64,000 nucleotides of DNA from an uncultured Oscillospiraceae bacterium (GTDB taxonomy: Bacteria; Bacillota; Clostridia; Oscillospirales; QAMX01). The notes beneath the pieces are model-generated. The model was not told the origin of the DNA and did not search any database. It saw only the letters and a list, made by a program, of their open reading frames with translations. The position numbers and the translations under genes were made by a program. Of the stretch, positions 48,725 to 58,364 are shown piece after piece. Position 1 is the stretch's first letter, and every line of letters starts with the position of its first letter. The stretch is taken from NCBI GenBank assembly GCA_964515055.1, contig CAZEUG010000002.1, positions 38,032 to 102,031 of the forward strand, written 5' to 3'.

Positions 48725-48753
48725 TTGACAGGGAAATCGATATCTGTTATACT
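48725..48753 (+). promoter_or_regulatory. Putative promoter of the nucleotidyltransferase-fold gene
   Basis: TTGACA-17 nt-(TGt)TATACT, 67 nt upstream of the ATG at 48820. Confidence 0.5.
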
Positions 48754-48819
48754 GAAAGTGTCAGCCATTCGAATTGACTGTAGATTTCGAATATTTCCTG
48801 CGGAAGGAGTGCATTGGTC

Positions 48820-50508
48820 ATGTCATCTGTGACCGATCGATTGATTCAGTTTCTTCAGCTGCACGCACCTGCCGAATCCGCCCCGGAGTTGGATCCCGCC
48901 TCTTTCCTGTCCGCACACCGTGTTCCCCTGCCGATCACCGTGGGGCATGAAGATCCGGGACAGAAAATTCAGCGGTTCACGCAGCGGCACATCCAGACAA
49001 AGCTGCTCCGTGCCATGCAGGAGTTGCTCACGTGTTTTCAATCGCATGGCATCGGTGTTCTGTTTCTGAAAGGGCCGTTGCTGGGATTGGAGCTGTATGG
49101 CGAAACCGGAATCCGTCCGACGTCCGATCTGGATCTGTTTGTTGCGGATGCTCAGGTTGCCGATGCATTGGACGCGTTGACGCAACTTGGCTATACCCGA
49201 ACAAACGGCACACCCTATTCCGGGAAAGACCGTGTTTACGAACTGAACCGTGGCGATATGCGTCTGAAAATGATGGGGCGGCATCTGACTGCCGTCCGAT
49301 CTTCCGGAAACTGGACGATCACGGTGGAATTGCACGCCACGCTGTTCCGGCACTATACTGCCATTTCACCGGCCTCTTTGGAATCGCAGGCAAACCGGAT
49401 CTTTTCTGACAGCCGCAGCATATCCTGTCAGGGAATTGACTACCCCGTTCCGGGCGTTTTGGATTCGTTCCTGATGCTCTGCACGCACTTTGCACGGCAC
49501 ACGGTGGAGGCATTGACCGCATTCTGTGCCAGAAAACAGCGGCCGCGTTTTCCGCTGCATCAGTTGCATGATCTCGCACTCTTTTTTGAGCACTGGTCGG
49601 ATGCGCTGTCGGCTTCCGACCTTTGGGCGCGTGCCCTGGTGTTCGGCAGTCAGGCCGATCTGGCCTTTGCCTGCCGGTATTTGCATGAAATATATGGAAT
49701 CGACCTTTGGCGATCGATTGCGCCATATCTTTCCGACAAACCGGATGACGATTTTGAAAATGATATCGTATGGAGCATTCTGCGGCAGCTTTCCGCTGCA
49801 GAGCTGCTGTTTTGTGCGCCGTCAGACAATCTCGCCCGTTTGCAATCCGTTGTTCCTGTCCGCCGCTGTTATGAACTCCGGAATGTGCGCGAGCTTTCTG
49901 CCGTTCCGGCCGACTATGAAGTCCGGGAGGTCTTTGATGATCTGTCCCGGCCACCTCTGCGGGAGCCCTATTCCTTCCGTTGGGGCGCTGCGTGTTCCGA
50001 TGAACAGCTCATGTTCTGCGTGGAAATTCCAACAGACCGTGTTGTCTTTCTGGGGGGATGCCAGAAAAATCTTCGTCGAAACTGTACCCGCTCCGACTGT
50101 CCGAAAGACTGTGCCGCACAGCACGGCGCCAATACGTTGATTCGTTTGCTGCTGCCCGGGACACATTGTCCGACCGAGGCCGGCAGCTGCATGAATCTGT
50201 ATGAAATCAGCATGATACAGACCGCAGACGGTCTCCGGCTCACAGCCGACCGAAACGGCCATCCGTTCGCCCTGTCCGGAGCTTCCGTTACAGAGAAAGA
50301 CGGCTTTTGGCAATTGCGGTTTCTGTTGCCGATCCCGGATTCCGGTGTTTCCAACGCCCTGCCTTTTATGATTTCCCGTGAAATTCTGCTTCCATTTCCG
50401 CACCGTCCGGAGCAAGCCATCGCCTTTAGTGTGCGCTGGCTGAACAGTGTTGCGGTTTCGCATCAGACCTGTCTGAGTTGCGGCCTGCTGCGAAAATCCC
50501 GCCTGTAA
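48820..50508 (+). CDS. Nucleotidyltransferase-fold protein (uncharacterised NTP_transf_5/PF14907-like) with ~250-aa C-terminal extension
   Basis: FLKGPLLGLELYGETGIRPTSDLDLFV matches the K-G...Y...R..D.D..V signature of that family as I remember it. ATG 10 nt after GGAAGGAG. Confidence 0.65.
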   Translation: MSSVTDRLIQFLQLHAPAESAPELDPASFLSAHRVPLPITVGHEDPGQKIQRFTQRHIQTKLLRAMQELLTCFQSHGIGVLFLKGPLLGLELYGETGIRPTSDLDLFVADAQVADALDALTQLGYTRTNGTPYSGKDRVYELNRGDMRLKMMGRHLTAVRSSGNWTITVELHATLFRHYTAISPASLESQANRIFSDSRSISCQGIDYPVPGVLDSFLMLCTHFARHTVEALTAFCARKQRPRFPLHQLHDLALFFEHWSDALSASDLWARALVFGSQADLAFACRYLHEIYGIDLWRSIAPYLSDKPDDDFENDIVWSILRQLSAAELLFCAPSDNLARLQSVVPVRRCYELRNVRELSAVPADYEVREVFDDLSRPPLREPYSFRWGAACSDEQLMFCVEIPTDRVVFLGGCQKNLRRNCTRSDCPKDCAAQHGANTLIRLLLPGTHCPTEAGSCMNLYEISMIQTADGLRLTADRNGHPFALSGASVTEKDGFWQLRFLLPIPDSGVSNALPFMISREILLPFPHRPEQAIAFSVRWLNSVAVSHQTCLSCGLLRKSRL

Positions 50509-50577
50509 GGCTTTTGCCGTACACCGCGCCCACCGAGTCGTAAAACGAAATCGGTGCATTTATGATTTTCCAGCCTT

Positions 50578-50820
50578 CGCACAAAACAGTTGTCAGGCAA
50601 AGAAAGCGTATGGAAATTGAAATGTTTTCACAGCCTTGGTGTTGGTATGGTGGTGTATTTGTGAAAGCGCAGACTGAGCCTGTTTCAGGTGATGTCTGCG
50701 CTTTTTTGGCCATTGTCAGGAGAAATCAAAAAACGACCGTATCATTCGTCAGCGAATTATTGATAAGAGGATGGTTGAATCATGGGAACGGAATGGAAAA
50801 AGAGTCGGTATGCATTCTTT
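50578..50820 (+). repeat. Direct repeat copy 1 (243 bp)
   Basis: Identical to 50929-51171 except G/C at 50592/50943. Contains a terminator hairpin, an RBS and the first 13 codons of the rSAM gene. Confidence 0.95.
50664..50707 (+). terminator. Intrinsic terminator (in repeat copy 1; likely ends the nucleotidyltransferase transcript)
   Basis: AAAGCGCAGAC...(inner CCTG/CAGG)...GTCTGCGCTTTTTT. Confidence 0.65.
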
Positions 50821-50862
50821 TGTCTTTTCTATTTTTTTGTAAAGTGCTTGACAGGTGAATAA
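50782..50862 (+). pseudogene. Duplicated 5' stub of the rSAM gene (13 native codons, then 13 unrelated codons and TAA)
   Basis: ATGGGAACGGAATGGAAAAAGAGTCGGTATGCATTCTTT is identical to 51133-51171; the reading frame then diverges (MGTEWKKSRYAFF-CLFYFFVKCLTGE*). Confidence 0.6.
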
Positions 50863-50876
50863 AGAAGTGATATAAT
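50848..50876 (+). promoter_or_regulatory. Consensus sigma-A promoter in the 108-bp segment between the repeat copies
   Basis: TTGACA-17 nt-(TGa)TATAAT: perfect -35, optimal spacer, extended -10 and perfect -10. Confidence 0.65.
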
Positions 50877-50928
50877 GTTAACAGTTAAAGAATCCAATGA
50901 GTTTCATCAGCAATCAACCGCATAAATC

Positions 50929-51171
50929 CGCACAAAACAGTTCTCAGGCAAAGAAAGCGTATGGAAATTGAAATGTTTTCACAGCCTTGGTGTTGGTATG
51001 GTGGTGTATTTGTGAAAGCGCAGACTGAGCCTGTTTCAGGTGATGTCTGCGCTTTTTTGGCCATTGTCAGGAGAAATCAAAAAACGACCGTATCATTCGT
51101 CAGCGAATTATTGATAAGAGGATGGTTGAATCATGGGAACGGAATGGAAAAAGAGTCGGTATGCATTCTTT
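50929..51171 (+). repeat. Direct repeat copy 2 (243 bp; leader and start of the rSAM gene)
   Basis: See copy 1; the offset between copies is exactly 351 bp. Confidence 0.95.
51015..51058 (+). terminator. Terminator hairpin inside the rSAM 5' leader (candidate attenuator)
   Basis: Same hairpin + T6 as 50664-50707, lying between the consensus promoter (50848-50876) and the rSAM ATG (51133). Confidence 0.55.
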
Positions 51172-52455
51172 ATTGAGCAGGAAAATGGTGCAATGATCAT
51201 TTATCATTCGACCACAGGTTTTATCTTACAATGTACAGAACCGGAATACATTGAAAAGGCACAAAAGATCGCCAATCAGTCCGCTTTTGAAATGGATGAA
51301 GGAAATGATTTAATGTGTTTGCTGCGAGACAAAGGTGTCCTTTTGGAAAACGATTTTGACGAAGATGCTCAAATTCGGCAATTGTACGATCGGGTCGTTA
51401 TGCACAGAAATCAACTTTCTCTGACGTTAATCGTAACGAGGCAGTGTAATTTTCGTTGCGTTTACTGCGGTCAGAAACACGAGAGCAACAAGCGTATGTC
51501 TCGTGAGATCTATGATAGAGTCCTATTGATGATTGAAAAAACATGCCATGATAAAAAGATAGACAGTGTTTCCATTTCTTTTTTTGGCGGAGAACCGCTT
51601 TTGGAATGTGAAGGAATTCTATATTTTCTGGAGAAATTACAGGGATTATCAAAAAAGACCGGAATTCCCTATTATGCAGGAATGACCACAAATGCATATT
51701 TACTGACAAAAAATAATTTCGAGCGTTTGGCACAGTTGAATTGTTTGGATTATCAAATAACATTGGATGGTATGGATGAGACTCATGACAAAAAAAGATA
51801 TCTCATCGGAAAAAGGAAAACATGGAAAACCATCGTAGATAATCTGCTCTATATCAAGTCAACAGATTATCCTTTCAAAATCATTTTGAGGACAAATTTT
51901 GATACAGAAGTCTTGCAATCAGTAGATTCATATTTGAATTTCGTGTCAGAAAATCTGAATGACGATCGTATCCTGATGTATCACGAAACCATTAAGGACC
52001 ACGGGAATCCCGAACAAAACGAATACATGTCGCAGTCTGAAGCGATTTTAAGCAACGTCGAAATTTCTCGTCTTTTGAAAGAGAAGGGTTTGAAATCTTC
52101 ACTTGTTTTTTCTTCAACAACGCCTGCCTGTTCGATGTGTCGAGCAGGAATTCCTGATTTTTATGTAATCGATTACGATGGAAGTATCAAAAGATGTACA
52201 CACCGATTGGATACTGAACCAAACTACCTGGGCAATCTGTCAGATGATGGTTCCATGATCATTGACCCTTCTCTGGATGCAAAATGGATTTATCGGGACT
52301 ATTTGTCCGATGATGAATGTAAAGAGTGCAAATTACTTCCTCTGTGTTTTGGAAAACAGTGTCCTGTTGCGCGGGTTGATCCCCAATTGGAGTTCGATTG
52401 TAACAAAGATTTGCGTGCTCTGGAACTGGAGGAAATCCTGCGCGTTCATTTATAG
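51133..52455 (+). CDS. Radical SAM/SPASM peptide maturase with N-terminal RRE-like domain
   Basis: CNFRCVYC (CX3CX2C). C-terminal CRAG-x10-DG-SIKR-C then CKECKLLPLCFGKQC ... DC gives the SPASM Cys pattern. About 95 aa precede the rSAM core. Confidence 0.9.
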   Translation: MGTEWKKSRYAFFIEQENGAMIIYHSTTGFILQCTEPEYIEKAQKIANQSAFEMDEGNDLMCLLRDKGVLLENDFDEDAQIRQLYDRVVMHRNQLSLTLIVTRQCNFRCVYCGQKHESNKRMSREIYDRVLLMIEKTCHDKKIDSVSISFFGGEPLLECEGILYFLEKLQGLSKKTGIPYYAGMTTNAYLLTKNNFERLAQLNCLDYQITLDGMDETHDKKRYLIGKRKTWKTIVDNLLYIKSTDYPFKIILRTNFDTEVLQSVDSYLNFVSENLNDDRILMYHETIKDHGNPEQNEYMSQSEAILSNVEISRLLKEKGLKSSLVFSSTTPACSMCRAGIPDFYVIDYDGSIKRCTHRLDTEPNYLGNLSDDGSMIIDPSLDAKWIYRDYLSDDECKECKLLPLCFGKQCPVARVDPQLEFDCNKDLRALELEEILRVHL

Positions 52456-52495: not shown

Positions 52496-52663
52496 ATGCA
52501 TGTGGTTCAAGATGCGGCAACCCCCGCAATGATTGCACGGAGAGTGCAAAGCAATGGTTGTGATTGCAATTGTAAGTGTCATGGTGGTACCGGCAGCTCC
52601 GGGGGAAGTAATTGCAACTGTCGTTGCAGCCAACCGTCTAAATCCAATAAGGTTGTGGATTGA
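52496..52663 (+). CDS. Cys-rich RiPP precursor candidate A1 (55 aa)
   Basis: AGGAGG 7 nt upstream of the ATG. MHVVQDAATPAMIARRVQSNGCDCNCKCHGGTGSSGGSNCNCRCSQPSKSNKVVD. It is hidden in the 3' end of tracked ORF 52262-52663. Confidence 0.75.
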   Translation: MHVVQDAATPAMIARRVQSNGCDCNCKCHGGTGSSGGSNCNCRCSQPSKSNKVVD

Positions 52664-52675
52664 AAGGAGGGACAA

Positions 52676-52825
52676 ATTATACATATCGTAAAGGATATTG
52701 CGATTCCTGCGTCCATTGCACGCGCCACTCAGGAAAACGGTTGCAATTGCAATTGCAATTGCAATTGTCATGGTGGTAGCGATGGCGGTTCCGGCGGTAC
52801 CAAGTGCAACTGTCGTTGCAGCTAA
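52676..52825 (+). CDS. Cys-rich RiPP precursor candidate A2 (48-49 aa, non-canonical ATT/ATA start)
   Basis: AGGAGGG RBS at 52665-52671; paralogue of A1: (M)IHIVKDIAIPASIARATQENGCNCNCNCNCHGGSDGGSGGTKCNCRCS*. No ATG/GTG/TTG in frame; ATT at 52676, and ATA at 52679 aligns with the A1 ATG. Confidence 0.6.
   Translation: MIHIVKDIAIPASIARATQENGCNCNCNCNCHGGSDGGSGGTKCNCRCS
52742..52765 (+). repeat. (TGCAAT)x4 hexanucleotide tandem repeat encoding (Cys-Asn)4
   Basis: Read directly: tgcaattgcaattgcaattgcaat, followed by tgt. Confidence 0.95.
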
Positions 52826-52832
52826 ACCGCCT

Positions 52833-52875
52833 GTCACGGCAGGCAGATTTTCGAGAAATCTCTGCCTGTCGTGAC
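52833..52875 (+). promoter_or_regulatory. Intra-operon stem-loop after the precursor genes (partial terminator or mRNA stabiliser)
   Basis: 15-bp stem GTCACGGCAGGCAGA/TCTGCCTGTCGTGAC (one G-U); the T5 run begins 7 nt after the stem, 8 nt after the A2 stop. Confidence 0.5.
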
Positions 52876-52921
52876 TCCAGATTTTTCCAATCATTCAACA
52901 AACAGAAAAGAGGATTCTGTT

Positions 52922-54736
52922 ATGAAAACCTTAAAAAGGGTACTTGGTTGCCAGTCTTTCATGTTGAAGCGAATGTATCGGGACAGCAAACGGCTCTTTT
53001 ATGTGACCCTGATTCAGTCGATTCTGTCCGGTATTTATCCAACCATCGAGCTGGTTGTCAGCAGGAACCTGATTGATGCCCTGGTACGGCTTTCCCTGCG
53101 GGATGCCATGATCAGTATTTCTGTCCTGATCGGCAGCTCCCTGCTCTATTATATTCTGAAAAAGCTGCTGAGTTTTATTGCCGACAATGCGTATAACCTG
53201 ATTCGGCGCCAGATGCGGTTTGACCTTTTTGAAAAGACCTGCTCGCTCGATCTGGCCGTGGCAGATCTGCCGGAAAACAGAACCCTGTATGAAGAAGCAC
53301 AGGGTGCCAACCAGAACAACCGTTGCATGCGGGTTCTGGATTCCTTTTTCAGCATTTTTACCGCCTGTATCACGTTGATTTCTTCCTATATCGTGATGAT
53401 CACAGTTGATCCATGGATTATGATTGTCATTGTCGCCGTGGTCATTCTGCAATCGTTTATCACCATTCGATCGCAGAAGCTGGCTTATGAGACCTGGCGG
53501 GAAGACGCCCGAACCAACAAGGAGGCGTCCTATGTTCTGGGGCTGCTGTTTGACCGCAACTGTGCCTTTGAAATGCGGCTGCACAATCTGTCACAATGGG
53601 TCATTCGGAAATTCAACAAGGTGCAGACCGAATCCGATCTGCTTTGGATTGAAAACAACAAAAAGCAGCAGAGAAACGATGTTTTGAATTTTGCCGTACA
53701 GCTGGTGCAGAAAGCGATTCTGTACGTTTATCTGGCACTGCAGATGCTTTACGCCAATATGACCGTTGCGAATTTCACACTGTGCTTCAATTCTCTGAAC
53801 CAGATTTCCAACAATCTGGTCGCCCTGATTCGCACATTTATTGATATTTTTGAAAATTCCAAGTATATTTACAGCTATAAAAAATATCTGGCGCTGGAAA
53901 ATACAATTGCCGTGCATCGGCCGGATGAAAAGCCGGTCGCCAGAAATGAAGCCCGCAACAACGAAATTGTCTTTGATCACGTCAGCTTCCGTTATCCGGA
54001 AGCACCGGCAGACGTGCTGCACGATATCAACCTGCATCTGGAGCCGCAGAAGTTTTATGTCATCGTTGGTGCGAACGGCGCCGGGAAAACGACGCTGATC
54101 AATCTGCTGATGCGTTTGTATGATCCGTCGAGCGGTTCGATTCGCCTGGGGCAGACCGATATTCGCGACTATGATTTTCAAAGCTATCGGGACTGTTTTG
54201 GTGTGGTTTTCCAGAATTTCAAGGTTTTTGATTATTCGTTCTTTGAAAACATCACGCTATCCGAGGAGGAAAATGAGGAGATCGATGCAGAGGTTCAGCA
54301 GGTCATTCAGAAGGCCGGATTGGCCAACAAGGTGTCACAGCTTGCCAAAGGGATGCACACCTGTGTCGGTAAAGCGTTTGACCAGGATGGCGTCAAGTTA
54401 TCCGGCGGCGAATATCAGAAGGTTGCTCTGGCCAGAGCGCTGTACAGAGACAGTCAGATTCTGATTCTGGACGAGCCATCCAGCGCATTGGATGCGTTGG
54501 CAGAGGATGATCTGATTCAGACCTTCCAGCGAGCCAGCACCAACCAGACGGTTTTCTATATTTCGCACCGTCTCTCCGTGGCGCGCTTTGCATATCGCGT
54601 GATTTTTGTCGGCGATCATACGATTTTGGGCTGCGGCAGCCACGACGAGCTGATGCAAACCTGTCCGCAGTATGCAGAGATGTATACGGCACAGGCCAAA
54701 TATTACACGGAACAGGAAACCGCCCCTTCGCACTGA
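52922..54736 (+). CDS. ABC exporter, fused permease + ATPase (no C39 peptidase domain)
   Basis: Six-TM N-terminal half; GANGAGKTT Walker A, LSGGEYQKVALARAL signature, ILILDEPSSALD Walker B. Start re-picked at MKTLKRVLG. Confidence 0.9.
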   Translation: MKTLKRVLGCQSFMLKRMYRDSKRLFYVTLIQSILSGIYPTIELVVSRNLIDALVRLSLRDAMISISVLIGSSLLYYILKKLLSFIADNAYNLIRRQMRFDLFEKTCSLDLAVADLPENRTLYEEAQGANQNNRCMRVLDSFFSIFTACITLISSYIVMITVDPWIMIVIVAVVILQSFITIRSQKLAYETWREDARTNKEASYVLGLLFDRNCAFEMRLHNLSQWVIRKFNKVQTESDLLWIENNKKQQRNDVLNFAVQLVQKAILYVYLALQMLYANMTVANFTLCFNSLNQISNNLVALIRTFIDIFENSKYIYSYKKYLALENTIAVHRPDEKPVARNEARNNEIVFDHVSFRYPEAPADVLHDINLHLEPQKFYVIVGANGAGKTTLINLLMRLYDPSSGSIRLGQTDIRDYDFQSYRDCFGVVFQNFKVFDYSFFENITLSEEENEEIDAEVQQVIQKAGLANKVSQLAKGMHTCVGKAFDQDGVKLSGGEYQKVALARALYRDSQILILDEPSSALDALAEDDLIQTFQRASTNQTVFYISHRLSVARFAYRVIFVGDHTILGCGSHDELMQTCPQYAEMYTAQAKYYTEQETAPSH

Positions 54737-54745
54737 AAGAAGCTG

Positions 54746-55630
54746 ATGACCGTGCTCGTGTATAGTATATACGGTTTATCCGTGGAATCGAATCTGGAGC
54801 TGTCTTATGTAGATGCAGGCCGTCCAGGTGTCTGTGATATGCGGCTGCACGTGTCCTTTGCGGAAATGCCGCCGGTTCAGCCCATACGGATTCTGGAATC
54901 CGAACAATGGCTGACCATTGAGCTGTTCCCCTTCGCGGTTTATCGGCTGGACAGGTATTCCAACGATGTTTTTTGTCAGGCAGCAGATTATGAGTCATTT
55001 TACTCGACATTTTTCAATCTGCCGTGCTCGGTCTTTCTTTTGCAGCGCGGTGATCTGCTTTTGCACGCGTCATCACTGGTTCACAGTCAAACAGGTGAAT
55101 TGATCGGTTTTGCCGGGCAGAAAGGTGTCGGGAAAAGCACGCTGGTGCATCTGTTGTGCGGGGAAACGTATCAGATTTATGCGGATGATACCCTGCGGAT
55201 TCCGATGGATACCTCTATGGGATTCCGGGGAAATTCTCTTTTGAAACTGACGCCGGAGACGTCCGCCCTCATTCAGGGCAGGCTTCAACTGACGGGACAT
55301 CAAAATGCAGTCGGAAAAGATTATGCCGCCATTTCAACAGATTCCCGGCAACGTCCGATTCGGGCAATCGTTCAACTGACGCGAACTTCGGAGGTAACTT
55401 TTTCCATCCGGCCGGTAATCGCCCCGTTACAGCGTGCCCAAATCATTTGCAGACATCTGACAGGCATCCCGTTCTGGACGGCTTCCATGATTCAAAAGGT
55501 CATGCAGCTTGTCAAAAAAGTCGAGATTCCCGTTTATTCCATGCGAATCCCCGATTCTCTGCATCGTTTGGAGCAGCAAAAGTCGGACATCCTCTCAGCC
55601 CTTGAACAGATGACGAACTCGGTTCTGTGA
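54746..55630 (+). CDS. HPr-kinase-like P-loop protein (putative RiPP peptide kinase)
   Basis: LHASSLVHSQTGELIGFAGQKGVGKSTLVHLLCGETYQIYADDTLRI parallels the genuine HprK in this window ([44 protein letters not shown]). Confidence 0.7.
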   Translation: MTVLVYSIYGLSVESNLELSYVDAGRPGVCDMRLHVSFAEMPPVQPIRILESEQWLTIELFPFAVYRLDRYSNDVFCQAADYESFYSTFFNLPCSVFLLQRGDLLLHASSLVHSQTGELIGFAGQKGVGKSTLVHLLCGETYQIYADDTLRIPMDTSMGFRGNSLLKLTPETSALIQGRLQLTGHQNAVGKDYAAISTDSRQRPIRAIVQLTRTSEVTFSIRPVIAPLQRAQIICRHLTGIPFWTASMIQKVMQLVKKVEIPVYSMRIPDSLHRLEQQKSDILSALEQMTNSVL

Positions 55631-55638
55631 CATTCGGT

Positions 55639-55678
55639 AAAAAAGCGTCTGCACGCATTCTGTGCAGACGCTTTTTTT
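55639..55678. terminator. Bidirectional intrinsic terminator between the island and clpB
   Basis: A6-GCGTCTGCAC-loop-GTGCAGACGC-T7. Confidence 0.85.
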
Positions 55679-55712
55679 ATGCTTCCATGAGAAGGAACGC
55701 GCTTTGCCGCGT

Positions 55713-58364
55713 TTAGCGTACTTCGTCGGGTGAATAGACTTCACCGGTCAGAACCGGGTGGCAGGTCAGGCGGCCATCGGCTGCATCGAGCACGAGGGTG
55801 GAGCCGGCATCCAGATTGCCGGCCAGAATTTCGCGGGCAATGAGCGTTTCCGCCATTCTTTGCAGGCAGCGCTTCAGCGGTCGTGCGCCGTAAACCGGGT
55901 CGTAGCCCTGATCGATGATGAGCGCCCTGGCCGCATCGGTCACTTCCAGCTGCAGCCCGCCTGCGGCGCGGTCGGCCATACGCGTTTGCAGACCGGTCAG
56001 CAGCAGATCGACGATGGCGTTCAGGTTTTCCTTGGTCAGCGGTTTGAAGAATACGATTTCGTCCAGGCGGTTCAGGAATTCCGGTCGGAACGCTGCCCGG
56101 AGCTCGGCCTGCACGCTGGCGCGTGCCGCTTCGCTGACGGAGCCGTCCGGTGCAATGCCGTCCAGCAGATACTGGCTGCCGAGGTTGGAGGTCAGGATGA
56201 TGATCGTATTTTTGAAATCAACCGTGCGCCCCTGGCTGTCGGTGATGCGGCCATCGTCCAGAATTTGCAGCAGGATATTGAACACATCCGGGTGCGCCTT
56301 CTCCACCTCATCGAAGAGGATGACGCTGTAGGGGTGGCGGCGGACGGCTTCGGTGAGCTGGCCGCCCTCGTCATAGCCGACATATCCCGGAGGCGCACCG
56401 ATCAGGCGGGACACGCTGAATTTCTCCATATACTCCGTCATGTCAATCCGCACCAGACTGCGTTCGTCATCGAACAGACTTTCGGCCAGCGTTTTGGCCA
56501 GCTCCGTTTTGCCGACACCGGTCGGCCCTAAAAAGAGGAAGCTGCCGATTGGGCGGTTGGGGTCTGCGATCCCGGCACGGCTGCGCTGAATGGCTTCACT
56601 GACCAGGCGCACTGCTTCATCCTGTCCGACGACACGCCGGTGCAGGATATCTTCGAGTCGCAGCAGCTTTTCCCGTTCGCCCTCGACGAGTCGGGATACC
56701 GGGATGCCCGTCCAGCGTCCAACGACCTCGGCGATCTCTGCATCGGTTACGGTGGAACGGACGAGTCGGTTCTGGTTCTGCCGTTCTGCCGTCTGTTCGG
56801 CCTCCGCCAGCTGTTTTTTCAGCGTCGGCAGCTCGGAATATTGCAGGCGCGCCGCCTTTTCATATTCGCCGTGCAGCTGAGCCTGTTCCATTTCGCCTGT
56901 TTTCTTCTCGATCTCCGTTTTGATCTGCTTGACGGTTTCCGCCGCTTCCTTTTCTGATGTCCAGCGCGCCTTCATTTCGCGGAGCTGATCCTGCTTTTCC
57001 GCAAGCTCCGCCGTCAGCTTGGCCAGACGGTCCCTGGAGAGCTGATCTTCCTCTTTTTTCAGCGACATTTCCTCGATTTCCATCTGCATGATATCGCGGC
57101 GCAGATCATCCAGCTCGCTCGGCATGGAGTCAATCTCCGTGCGAATCATGGCACACGCCTCATCGACCAGGTCAATCGCCTTATCCGGCAGGAACCGGTC
57201 GGTGATATACCGGTTGGACAGCGTGGCCGCCGCCACCAGCGCGTTGTCGTGAATGCGGACGCCGTGGAAGATCTCATACCGTTCCTTCAGTCCGCGCAGG
57301 ATGGAGATCGTATCCTCCACAGTCGGCTCCTCCACGATGACCGGCTGGAATCTCCGTTCCAGTGCGGCGTCCTTTTCGATGTATTTGCGGTATTCGTCCA
57401 GCGTGGTGGCGCCGATGCAGTGCAGCTCGCCACGCGCCAGCATCGGCTTGAGCAGGTTGCCCGCGTCCATGGAGCCCTCTGTCTTCCCGGCACCGACGAT
57501 TGTATGCAGTTCATCAATGAAGAGCAGGATGCGCCCATCCGCCTTTTTGACCTCATTCAGAACGGCTTTCAGGCGTTCCTCAAATTCGCCGCGATATTTT
57601 GCACCGGCCACCAGTGCGCCCATATCCAGCGAGAAAATGGTCTTTTCCTTCAGGCCGTCCGGCACATCACCCCGCACGATTCGCTGCGCCAGACCCTCGG
57701 CGATGGCGGTTTTGCCGACGCCCGGTTCGCCGATCAGGACGGGGTTATTTTTGCTCTTGCGGGACAGGATGCGGATTACGCTCCGGATTTCGGCGTCCCG
57801 GCCGATGACCGGATCCAGCTTCTGTGCCCGTGCGCGTTCGACCAGGTCTGTGCCGTATTTGTTCAGCACGTCATACGTATCCTCCGGATGGTCACTTGTC
57901 ACCGGTGCGCTTTTCACGCGGGACAGCTCCTGCAAAAAGCGTTCCTGCGTCACGCCGTGCCGTTGAAAAATGCCCTGTACCGTCCGGCCGCCTTCAGCAA
58001 TCAGACCCAGCATCAGGTGTTCAACGGAGAGGTATTCGTCCTTCAGCTGCTCTGCCATTTTTTCGGCGAAGCGCAGCACAGCCGACACCTCGCTCGATGG
58101 ATACAGATCGCCGCCCGTCCCCGTCACCTTCGGCAGCCGTTCCATTTCGGCATTCAGCTCGCCCAGCATGGCGCCAACCAGATCGGTGTTGCCGCTCTGG
58201 CGACCCATCCGTTCCAGGAGCGTCCCGATCAGGCCGCCCTCCTGCGACAGCAGCGCATACGCCAGATGCTCCGGTGCGAGCGTCTGATTCTGTTTGTCCC
58301 GCGCCAGATTTTGTGCGCGGTTGATCACATCTATCGTCTTTTGTGTCATTTTTTCTGCATTCAT
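55713..58364 (-). CDS. clpB: ATP-dependent chaperone ClpB
   Basis: 883 aa; two AAA+ modules ([22 protein letters not shown]) with a long middle coiled-coil. Confidence 0.95.

Follow-up and report, generated by a model that had tools for sequence, protein, structure and literature searches.

At one locus of an uncultured gut Oscillospiraceae bacterium, the first gene of an operon for Cys-rich peptides is preceded by two nearly identical copies of its own leader, each extending into the first codons of the gene, and between them lies a short unique segment that carries a strong promoter. The arrangement raises the question of whether a promoter was recently captured in front of the operon, leaving a spare leader behind, or whether promoter and leader belong there and the second leader has some other history, and further what the repeats imply for the stability and expression of the operon. 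We address this question in the 64,000-nt stretch of DNA that holds the locus (the window), by comparison with related genomes, contigs and public metagenomes.

Layout and authenticity of the repeat

The two leader copies, A1 and A2, are 243 nt each, stand at an offset of 351 nt and are 99.6% identical, their sole mismatch being G at 50592 versus C at 50943; the neighbouring bases are unlike at both ends, so that neither copy can be extended (Table 1). A repeat of this length and identity is far beyond chance expectation. Its coordinates, the single mismatch, the offset and the promoter-bearing spacer of 108 bp had been described correctly, in every detail, in the initial annotation of this DNA. 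Each copy holds, in order, a G/U-rich tract, a hairpin with a T6 run, a ribosome-binding site (RBS) and an ATG followed by 12 codons, and A2 runs on into the gene for a radical SAM protein (rSAM). The unique spacer, B, occurs once between the copies, and the arrangement is therefore not a simple head-to-tail tandem duplication; formally, A-B-A amounts to 1.69 copies of a 351-nt unit. It may possibly have arisen in two steps, through duplication of B-A and subsequent loss of the first B. The left flank, u, comprises the NTP_transf_5 gene and its trailing 69-nt spacer (50509-50577). A tandem B-A-B-A, with a decayed B ahead of A1, was considered and rejected: u aligns with its counterpart in the outgroup locus L023 (see below) and not with B or A.

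Table 1. Features of the repeat region and adjoining operon (positions in the window)
Feature	Position	Strand	Remarks
Promoter-like site of NTP_transf_5, TTGACA-17-TGtTATACT	48725..48753	+	11/12
NTP_transf_5 (PF14907) gene	48814..50508	+	Upstream gene; homologous flank in L001, L003, L021 and L023
A1, extra (derived) copy of the leader and first 13 rSAM codons	50578..50820	+	Between the 3' end of NTP_transf_5 and the promoter
A1 core	50636..50707	+	G/U-rich tract 50636-50663; hairpin and T6 run 50664-50707
RBS AAGAGGA	50765-50771 (A1), 51116-51122 (A2)	+	
Stub ORF of 26 codons, MGTEWKKSRYAFFCLFYFFVKCLTGE	50782..50862	+	13 rSAM codons and 13 unrelated codons; stop inside B
B, unique segment of 108 nt	50821..50928	+	30.6% GC; promoter and first ~45 nt of the predicted transcript
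Sigma-A/sigma-70-type promoter, TTGACA-17-TGaTATAAT	50848..50876	+	12/12, with upstream (extended -10) TG
A2, functional copy of the leader (bulk of the 5' UTR), RBS and first 13 rSAM codons	50929..51171	+	
Weak candidate leader ORF, MEIEMFSQPWCWYGG...	50961..51176	+	Reads into/through the hairpin
A2 core	50987..51058	+	G/U-rich tract 50987-51014; hairpin and T6 run 51015-51058
Radical SAM/SPASM peptide maturase, 440 aa	51133..52455	+	Pfam Radical_SAM and Fer4_12; heads the operon
Cys-rich precursor peptide 1 (...NGCDCNCKCHGG...NCNCRCS)	52496..52663	+	10-aa extension by stop loss in the window strain
Cys-rich precursor peptide 2 (...NGCNCNCNCNCHGG...KCNCRCS)	52676..52825	+	ATG ATG start changed to ATT ATA in the window strain
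ABC exporter	52871-54736	+	Low-GC island
P-loop, HprK-related-like protein	54746-55630	+	Low-GC island, of which it forms the remainder with the exporter

The A-B-A arrangement is not an assembly artefact. Both the A-to-B and the B-to-A junction are crossed by unitigs or contigs from independent public metagenomes (X1, X2, X3 and X8), in at least four runs of the window strain type as well as in five of the type represented by L003. The interior of A forms one variant-free unitig, deeper than the flanks where depths are comparable: in A-B-A runs of that kind A generally stands at ~1.4-2.1x the flank (~1.0-1.4x in X1) and B at ~0.4-1.3x. Furthermore, other MAGs and contigs (L003, L021 and L022) were assembled with the same architecture, MAGs of other projects giving the same order with distinguishable copies. 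That the source genome has one A, to which a second A and B were added from mis-joined strain variants, is on these grounds extremely improbable, even though the window is probably metagenome-derived or a short-read assembly, a 243-nt repeat is hard for short reads and single-copy strains occur in the same studies.

The genes that follow resemble systems for Cys-rich RiPPs, in that short precursors rich in Cys and an ABC exporter are encoded next to the rSAM gene. The best-scoring families of the rSAM protein are TIGR04463 (rSAM_vs_C_rich) and CefB NF038107, both NCBIfam radical SAM/SPASM maturases of Cys-rich RiPPs, although it falls far under the cut-offs of either (177 versus 525 bits and 173 versus 600 bits, respectively). 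The precursors, which carry a CxCxC(N/D) motif, matched no family.

Ancestry of the promoter and age of the duplication

The promoter in B is the top match across the 7.3 kb scanned and would start transcription near 50883. It is retained at 12/12 with 17-nt spacing in three lineages, namely the window, L003 and L023, between which the whole B segment is ~68-73% identical; the promoter spacer drifts, at least 6 of its 17 positions differing, while the hexamers and the spacing are invariant.

A lineage that bears directly on the origin of the arrangement is L023, which takes the outgroup position for each of rSAM, NTP_transf_5 and hprK. Its gene order is NTP_transf_5 - B - A - rSAM, with one A only, the complete promoter and a gap of 363 nt between NTP_transf_5 and rSAM. 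The u region of L023 aligns with u and the start of B in the window (0/500 shuffles score as well) and does not align with A1 (109/500 shuffles as good). Since B lies directly upstream of the single A in L023, the promoter is ancestral and not captured; as this comparison shows, B represents the native promoter segment of the radical SAM RiPP operon, and A its native 5' leader. A1, on the other hand, is missing from L023 and is found, partly diverged, in L003 and L021. The complete A1-B-A2 order is common to L003 (an Oscillospiraceae MAG) and the ENA contigs L021 and L022, and the L003 type of it was recovered in five more runs (X15, X16, X17, X19 and X20). The island of L003 and L021 is ~89% identical to that of the window, and the presence there of A-B-A with copies strongly diverged in two of four segments argues that the duplication is old. 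The lineages compared thus place the duplication that added A1 later than the branching of L023 and earlier than the split between the window and L003 lineages. The opposite polarity, with A-B-A ancestral and A1 precisely lost in L023, is formally possible.

The principal model of the initial annotation was a very recent duplication or capture event, in which a strong promoter, B, was placed before the operon and a decoy leader was left behind. The near-identity of the copies (1/243 differences) and the low GC of B, with its textbook promoter, speak for this model, and yet we consider it very improbable. Its capture element is contradicted by the position of B directly upstream of a lone A in L023 and by the intact promoter in all three lineages; its recency, by the occurrence of A-B-A in a lineage ~11% diverged, where the copies are reduced to 40% and 55% identity in two of four segments. 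In addition, low GC is a property of the whole island and not of B alone, no second copy of B was found in the window, and searches for relatives gave none in plasmids and one marginal 79-nt match in phages. On these grounds, and with its occurrence in L023 unaccompanied by the duplication, B was rejected as a mobile or foreign promoter; an insertion sequence or MITE with an outward promoter was likewise rejected, B being single and occupying the same site in L023 with no flanking duplication. Promoter capture is known at the join points of tandem duplications of the Anderson and Roth type, which A-B-A resembles in having a changed sequence upstream of a gene start. It differs in that no new promoter-gene fusion has been created, the order promoter-leader-gene being ancestral as in L023, and the new junctions, u-A1 and A1-B, yield only a stub of 23-26 codons.

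Near-identity of repeats within a diverged island can mean gene conversion and not recency, a reading that the initial annotation had also entertained and that the second lineage bears out. In L003, A1 and A2 are 40% identical in the 5' part, 98% in the core, 55% in the middle part and 100% in the RBS and 13 codons, the corresponding values for A2 of the window against A2 of L003 being 66%, 93%, 66% and 90%. Over the core, and again over the RBS with 13 codons, the paralogous copies of L003 are thus closer than orthologous ones, and lineage-specific changes are present in both copies (e.g. AACGGAA versus AACTGAA, and variants of the RBS), which together argue for gene conversion. The sequences are best explained by an old duplication undergoing concerted evolution, the copies being kept alike by conversion. 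Conversion is patchy in L003, affecting the core and the stretch of RBS and 13 codons, and extends across all 243 nt in the lineage of the window, so that just one private mismatch is left. Among duplicated sequences of bacteria, tufA/tufB and the rRNA operons are familiar examples that evolve in concert by this means, and with them the A copies share both a greater likeness between paralogues than between orthologues and mosaic conversion tracts. Unlike these, they are short, are non-coding or leader sequences, and lie just 108 bp apart in direct orientation; hence recombination that homogenises them can delete the spacer too.

The conserved core of the leader

Within the 5' UTR, the core of A2 is situated ~105-175 nt past the start predicted for the transcript, and 75 nt separate it from the ATG downstream. 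Its hairpin consists of 12-bp and 5-bp stems joined by a 3x3 internal loop and followed by U6 (~-27 kcal/mol, z = -3.5), and it has the form of an intrinsic terminator, namely a stable GC-rich hairpin directly before a U tract on the sense strand; a simple terminator scan overlooks it because of the internal loop. A single arm change in L023 retains pairing (G-C to G-U). Between the window and A2 of L003 the core differs at 0/71 positions, against a divergence of 12% at third codon positions of rSAM (P ~1e-4), and by this measure it is under constraint. We regard the core of A2 as a candidate attenuator, and that of A1 as probably acting as an intrinsic terminator for NTP_transf_5 transcripts.

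Attenuators and leader terminators abound in the 5' UTRs of Firmicutes, and include T-box, PyrR and TRAP systems, the expression platforms of riboswitches and leader-peptide attenuators. The A leader is like these in having a strong hairpin and U tract downstream of a strong promoter and ahead of the first gene, and in the highly conserved tract that precedes the hairpin; it is unlike them in having no Rfam match and no conserved antiterminator that could be found. The G/U tract is a poor fit to the repeat patterns of TRAP (GAG/UAG) or HutP (UAG). No pairing of an antiterminator with the 5' arm of the hairpin appeared in MFE or consensus folds of the leader. The only extra helix in the consensus fold joins the G/U tract to sequence 3' of the hairpin, which it encloses; this helix was rejected, as the changes in its favour are all one-sided transitions that the G/U strand tolerates anyway. 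The hairpin may therefore act constitutively as a partial terminator, or serve RNA stability, and not be a regulated attenuator.

Relatives of the core were sought more widely. Covariance models of Rfam 15 found nothing in 50578-51171, even at E <= 1, and a permissive scan of 48-56 kb gave only sub-threshold Thr_leader and miRNA matches outside the leader. The hairpin was not found in the viral contigs searched. A 20-mer of the core had four matches in JGI metagenomes, none homologous to the locus; at least three of the four fall in coding sequence for GWYGGVFV. Distant rSAM orthologues (L005-L013, 59-65% identity) have neither the leader nor the duplication, and so add no sequences for the analysis of covariation.

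Conservation of the core in both copies also bears on the role of A1. That A1 is itself functional, as a terminator (insulator) that separates NTP_transf_5 from the promoter, is a reading we consider unlikely, if the least so among the alternatives; were a trans-acting factor to control the hairpin, that factor would govern read-through from upstream as well as the leader of the operon. In L003 the core of A1 is still nearly identical to that of A2, with neighbouring segments decayed to 40-55%, and L023, which has no A1, shows no terminator-like hairpin before its promoter, as judged by reading of the spacer and by the scan that overlooks the A hairpin too. However, conversion seeded in those segments that selection holds constant in A2 would give the same pattern, and the RBS and 13 codons of A1 are fully conserved although the stub peptide they begin is not, which points to conversion and not to selection on A1.

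The stub itself is frameshifted in X2 and X3 by a 1-nt deletion at 50807, and in L003 it has another tail (23 aa). It is probably a by-product and not a conserved peptide, and the notion of A1 as a decoy coding unit finds no support. A second short frame, MEIEMFSQPWCWYGG, retains its ATG and WCWY in the rSAM-proximal copies of four lineages, by reading of the alignment, while the later frame and length are not retained. As a real peptide or precursor it was rejected, an indel in L023 breaking the frame after WCWY and the length ranging from 22 to 71 codons; as a leader peptide it is a weak candidate, read from the alignment without statistical support.

Natural loss of the promoter

Two forms of the locus occur in the same strain type across independent metagenomes: A-B-A in X1-X3 and X8, and a single A with no B in X4-X6 and L001. 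Contigs from X4 (8.6x), X5 (17x) and X6 (a shallow 3.9x) read u-A-v, skipping 351 or 352 nt, with no contig for B, these and the other single-copy calls from runs being based on contigs at k=31. In L001 the left flank is 99.95% identical to that of the window and the gap is 272 nt versus 624. A contig from X14, belonging to the L003-type lineage and likewise shallow (3.8x), has the 5' part specific to A1 followed by the middle part specific to A2, and probably represents a chimeric A1/A2 single-copy allele in that second lineage. Two single-copy haplotypes were seen (an A5 versus an A6 run), which is insufficient to prove recurrent events. The locus has two properties of an excisable cassette, a direct-repeat-mediated deletion polymorphism: long, near-identical direct repeats around a unique segment, and natural alleles with one repeat and no spacer in a near-identical background. 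Some strains in nature have thus lost the promoter through recombination of one A copy with the other; such collapse by homologous recombination, offered in the initial annotation as an alternative, is the part of its interpretation that these alleles uphold.

Homologous recombination of A1 with A2, whether unequal or intramolecular, removes B together with one A. In the A-B-A form, the NTP_transf_5 transcript would be ended by the hairpin of A1, and the promoter in B would start a leader of ~250 nt, in which the hairpin and U tract of A2 would attenuate transcription ahead of rSAM. After collapse, the operon would be reached only by read-through from the NTP_transf_5 promoter across the hairpin, and its expression should therefore be low or off. 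No further promoter-like site of at least 9/12 was found on the + strand within A, and in the single-A allele the site before NTP_transf_5 is the sole one recognisable upstream of the operon. Since collapse takes away the operon's sole recognisable promoter, we predict that it turns the operon down or off. Such collapse would be one-way within a cell line, B being regained only by recombination with DNA of an A-B-A strain. The model as a whole, comprising a native B-A, the later addition of A1, gene conversion, natural collapse and the predicted attenuation and loss of expression, appears to us quite probable.

A comparable arrangement has been documented at the wzy locus of Salmonella Typhimurium, where identical 113-bp direct repeats lie on either side and natural deletion alleles exist, loss of wzy altering a phenotype important for competition (PMC12074656). 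Both loci have long direct repeats around a unique segment, and both occur in nature either complete or reduced to a single repeat that lacks the insert. The A-B-A locus differs in that its excisable unit is just 108 bp and carries a promoter and not a gene, and in that the repeats are copies of the operon's own leader and gene start.

The likeness to wzy favours a further reading, in which A-B-A is a selected contingency switch: the extra leader would be kept because it makes the promoter excisable, so that non-producers continually arise (an ON-to-OFF form of bet-hedging or cheating), possibly with re-acquisition or expansion through recombination. Samples from several studies do show both alleles in one strain type, a second lineage probably has both as well, and A1 has been kept since before the lineages split. 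Moreover, two independent depth ratios, B/flank and A/flank minus 1, are concordant as measures of the share of A-B-A cells (0.80 and 0.71 in X16, at ~75x; 0.70 and 0.56 in X17; 0.44 and 0.51 in X20), but they derive from short unitigs, prone to GC bias, and do not separate strain mixtures from switching in situ. Loss would also be irreversible within a cell, and A1 could persist unselected if gene conversion, together with infrequent deletion, is enough to maintain it. In the window strain the genes for the precursors look damaged, which suggests decay and not a tuned switch; the locus may simply be decaying, its deletion alleles being neutral losses. On balance we think the switch improbable, somewhat more so than a function for A1. 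A little less probable again is the compound proposition that the 71-nt G/U tract and hairpin constitute a new attenuator RNA for undescribed Cys/Asn-rich radical SAM peptides and that the second leader has been selected as an excisable-promoter switch. If both parts were true, the locus would embody a recombination-based ON-to-OFF switch, possibly one of copy number too, by which a gut commensal would split into subpopulations that produce the peptides and others that do not.

The mechanisms called upon by the favoured model of native promoter, later leader duplication, conversion and collapse, namely repeat-mediated deletion and gene conversion, are textbook ones, and the worth of the locus is that of a well-resolved case and not of a new principle. 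Public data yielded all three states, B-A as the ancestral one, A-B-A as the duplicated one and A, without promoter, as the collapsed one, and together they provide a clean natural example in which a short duplication of its own leader renders the promoter of a gene deletable. The locus also points to a strongly conserved, unclassified leader element and to an uncharacterised CxCxC peptide system. Strains alike in gene content can differ in the presence of a promoter before a bacteriocin-like operon, a difference that annotation and metagenomic calls of presence or absence would overlook.

A repeated leader at the edge of a low-GC island

Two direct copies of a leader sequence, A1 (upstream) and A2 (proximal to the radical SAM gene), bracket a promoter segment, B, at the left edge of a low-GC island that is flanked by hprK and NTP_transf_5 on one side and by clpB on the other. 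The copies start 351 nt apart, their sole mismatch being G at 50592 against C at 50943, and the limits of the repeat are sharp, since the bases flanking A1 and A2 differ on either side. Each copy carries a 28-nt G/U-rich tract, a long hairpin with a T6 run (AAAGCGCAGAC-UGA-GCCUG-UUU-CAGGU-GAU-GUCUGCGCUUUUUU; about -27 kcal/mol, z = -3.5), the RBS AAGAGGA, and ATG followed by 12 codons; A1 ends in a stub ORF, and A2 reads on into a radical SAM/SPASM (rSAM) gene of 440 aa. The TTGACA-17-TGaTATAAT element within B is the sole 12/12 promoter match in the 7.3 kb scanned. Every element of the initial annotation's description (repeat, mismatch, offset and insert promoter) is present in the window.

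Features of the locus in window coordinates
Feature	Position	Description
NTP_transf_5 promoter-like site	48725-48753	
Low-GC island	about 50.5-55.6 kb	GC 0.34-0.51 vs 0.58 for the window
A1	50578-50820	direct repeat copy, 243 nt
Stub ORF ending A1	50782-50862	26 codons
B	50821-50928	spacer, 108 nt, 30.6% GC
Promoter in B	50848-50876	TTGACA-17-TGaTATAAT
A2	50929-51171	direct repeat copy, 243 nt
rSAM/SPASM maturase	51133-52455	440 aa
Precursor 1	52496-52663	Cys-rich
Precursor 2	52676-52825	Cys-rich

Logan contigs (k=31) of public gut metagenomes carrying the locus were compared over window positions 50300-51500. In four runs (X1, X2, X3 and X8) unitigs link the end of A1 to the start of A2 across B, and the interior of A forms one variant-free unitig, with a depth above that of the flanks wherever depths are comparable. 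Position 50943 is G in these four runs, so the single mismatch of the window is a private SNP. Two contigs (L024, L025) start about 29 nt before the end of A, the k-mer branch signature of a fork between A-to-B and A-to-gene. The A-B-A arrangement of the window is no assembly artefact.

The island encodes the rSAM maturase, two Cys-rich precursors (…NGCDCNCKCHGG…NCNCRCS and …NGCNCNCNCNCHGG…KCNCRCS), an ABC exporter and a P-loop HprK-related-like protein. No NCBIfam family was reached at its cut-off by the maturase (best TIGR04463, 177 bits against 525; CefB, 173 against 600), and a family search with the CxCxC(N/D)-rich precursors gave no match; these possibly represent an undescribed RiPP class, located alongside NTP_transf_5 and HprK-related-like genes. 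Divergence between lineages is greater in the island (about 89% identity) than in its flanks (about 95%), a pattern suggesting that the peptide locus was acquired horizontally or has undergone diversifying exchange. Between the island end and the 3' end of clpB, sub-threshold Rfam Thr_leader matches on both strands (55601-55733; 28-30 bits, gathering score 55) most likely reflect no true Thr_leader but a terminator-like hairpin that is bidirectional.

An old duplication and exchange between its copies

By identity of rSAM, NTP_transf_5 and hprK, four lineages group as ((window, L019), L003/L021), L023; at 79% (NTP_transf_5) and 91% (rSAM) identity to the window, L023 is placed as the outgroup. 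Its order is NTP_transf_5 - B - A - rSAM, with a single A and a 12/12 promoter, TTGACA-17-TATAAT. The L023 spacer upstream of this promoter matches the left flank of the window (NTP_transf_5 and its 3' spacer) plus the first 27 nt of B (0/500 shuffles score as well) and gives no alignment with A1 (109/500 shuffles score as well). As B thus precedes a single A, behind a spacer that aligns to flank and B and not to A1, the simplest reading of these comparisons is that B-A is ancestral and that A1 was inserted between the flank and B, rather than B having been captured. The same A1-B-A2 order, with a conserved promoter, occurs in L003 (an Oscillospiraceae MAG) and in ENA contigs L021 and L022, which share about 89% identity with the window in the island and about 95% in the flanks, so the duplication predates their split from the window lineage. 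The very recent duplication or promoter capture originally proposed therefore fails on both counts, the promoter being ancestral and the duplication old.

Codons 6-13 (51155-51171, and 50804-50820; AAAGAGU-CGGUAUGC-AUUCUUU) are predicted to form a small hairpin whose 3' end coincides exactly with that of the duplicated segment, and CTTT is common to the end of A and the insertion site; A1 may have arisen by a microhomology or hairpin-guided template switch. Over L003 6128-6700, run X18 (4.4x) yields one contig that connects the 3' part of B to rSAM across A2, unbroken near the end of A, where contigs usually stop; A1 is uncovered. Some of the L003-type lineage may therefore carry B-A alone, or the depth may simply be low.

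Gene conversion, also raised in the initial annotation, accounts better for the near-identity of the copies. Across four successive segments (5' part, G/U tract plus hairpin core, middle, RBS plus 13 codons), A1 and A2 of L003 are 40%, 98%, 55% and 100% identical; window A2 and L003 A2 are 66%, 93%, 66% and 90% identical. Paralogues are therefore closer than orthologues in the core and in the RBS plus 13 codons, and far more diverged in the 5' and middle segments. Lineage-specific substitutions are common to both copies, for example AACGGAA in the window pair and AACTGAA in the L003 pair, and likewise the differing RBS variants. This mosaic is the signature of an old duplication whose copies evolve in concert through gene conversion; one or several conversion tracts homogenised all 243 nt in the window lineage. 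The rSAM-proximal copy of L019 has a middle segment of L003-A1 type (88% identical), another sign of exchange between positions, and in X2 and X3 the copies are identical inside, differing only near their edges (50601, 50614, 50935; a 1-nt deletion at 50807). A 71-nt core is identical in the window and L003 A2 despite 12% divergence at rSAM third codon positions (P about 1e-4); in the functional copy this core is therefore under constraint, which keeps seeding conversion.

Collapse to a single copy in natural strains

In three runs (X4, 8.6x; X5, 17x; X6) a contig connects NTP_transf_5 to rSAM by way of one A only, skipping 351 or 352 nt, and no B-containing contig was found in the same runs. 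The X4 contig (L001) has a left flank 99.95% identical to the window and an intergenic gap of 272 nt, against 624; X5 and the A-B-A samples X1-X3 come from one study. Among L003-type runs, where the copies are distinguishable, an X14 contig has the A1-specific 5' part followed by the A2-specific middle and rSAM, skips 343 nt and places the crossover inside the shared core, a structure expected of A1 x A2 recombination, although at a depth of only 3.8x, at which a B contig was likewise absent; five other such runs are A-B-A. These contigs bear out the suggestion that A-B-A can collapse by recombination. Depth ratios of B to flank, and of A to flank minus one, are concordant and below unity in A-B-A samples X16 (0.80, 0.71; about 75x), X17 (0.70, 0.56) and X20 (0.44, 0.51), a hint of mixed copy number within samples for which GC bias or strain mixtures are also possible explanations. 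Among the k=31 contigs, no three-copy form was seen.

Predicted consequences for expression

Across three lineages the promoter hexamers stay unchanged and 17 nt apart, while the sequence between them and elsewhere in B has drifted (about 68-73% identity). B would act as a strong sigma-A-type promoter, with transcripts starting near 50883 and carrying a leader of roughly 250 nt. With its hairpin and U tract about 75 nt upstream of the rSAM start, this leader is likely to attenuate transcription; its layout resembles Firmicute attenuators, although it belongs to no curated family, matches none in Rfam, and revealed no antiterminator alternative. There is a faint, statistically unsupported candidate for a leader ORF, MEIEMFSQPWCWYGG…, whose ATG and WCWY persist in four lineages in the copy next to rSAM. 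Its frame stops within the hairpin's 5' arm in L023 and crosses the hairpin in the others; translating it would thus interfere with hairpin folding. The core 20-mer GGTATGGTGGTGTATTTGTG recurs exactly in unrelated JGI contigs (L015 3706-3725, L016 4247-4266, L017 2227-2246), coding there for G-W-Y-G-G-V-F-V, the same string as in the leader frame …WCWYGGVFV…; we treat these matches as coincidence.

Placed behind NTP_transf_5, the A1 hairpin probably terminates that transcript; no such hairpin was seen there in L023. The stub ORF appears to be a by-product: its tail is a different one in L003 (23 aa), and X2 and X3 have it frameshifted. In the collapsed allele, a scan showed no promoter-like site between the NTP_transf_5 promoter and rSAM, so the operon would depend on hairpin read-through, with low or no expression predicted. 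Collapse would be a one-way loss unless recombination with an A-B-A strain restored B.

Promoter loss may instead be part of a general decay of the locus, not a tuned switch, given precursor genes that look damaged in the window and a split rSAM in a sister lineage. Precursor 1 ends ...CNC(H)CS* in L003, L019 and L023; the stop is lost in the window and L001, adding QPSKSNKVVD. Precursor 2 has no canonical start codon in the window because ATT ATA replaces the ATG ATG of L019, and both precursor genes look impaired. Precursor 2 owes its CNCNCNCN stretch (52741-52764) to a palindromic hexanucleotide repeat, (TGCAAT)n, which may be prone to slippage; the CN/CD units vary in number by lineage (CNCNCNCNC in the window, CNCNCDC in L019 and L023). 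In L021 4001-5324 and L022 368-1691, gene calling divides rSAM into two ORFs (167 aa, then 257 or 282 aa), a split due to a frameshift or stop on 8 L003-type ENA contigs; the L003 gene is intact at 440 aa.

Comparative and population data support both the collapse and the gene-conversion readings. Homogenisation of A1 and A2 is ordinary concerted evolution, and the closest documented analogue of A-B-A is the excisable wzy locus of Salmonella, flanked by identical 113-bp direct repeats and with natural deletion alleles (PMC12074656). The locus is a repeat-mediated polymorphism of a kind already known, whose effects on expression we infer; what is unusual is the combination, in that each repeat is a copy of the leader and gene start of the operon itself, and what can be excised is the promoter alone.
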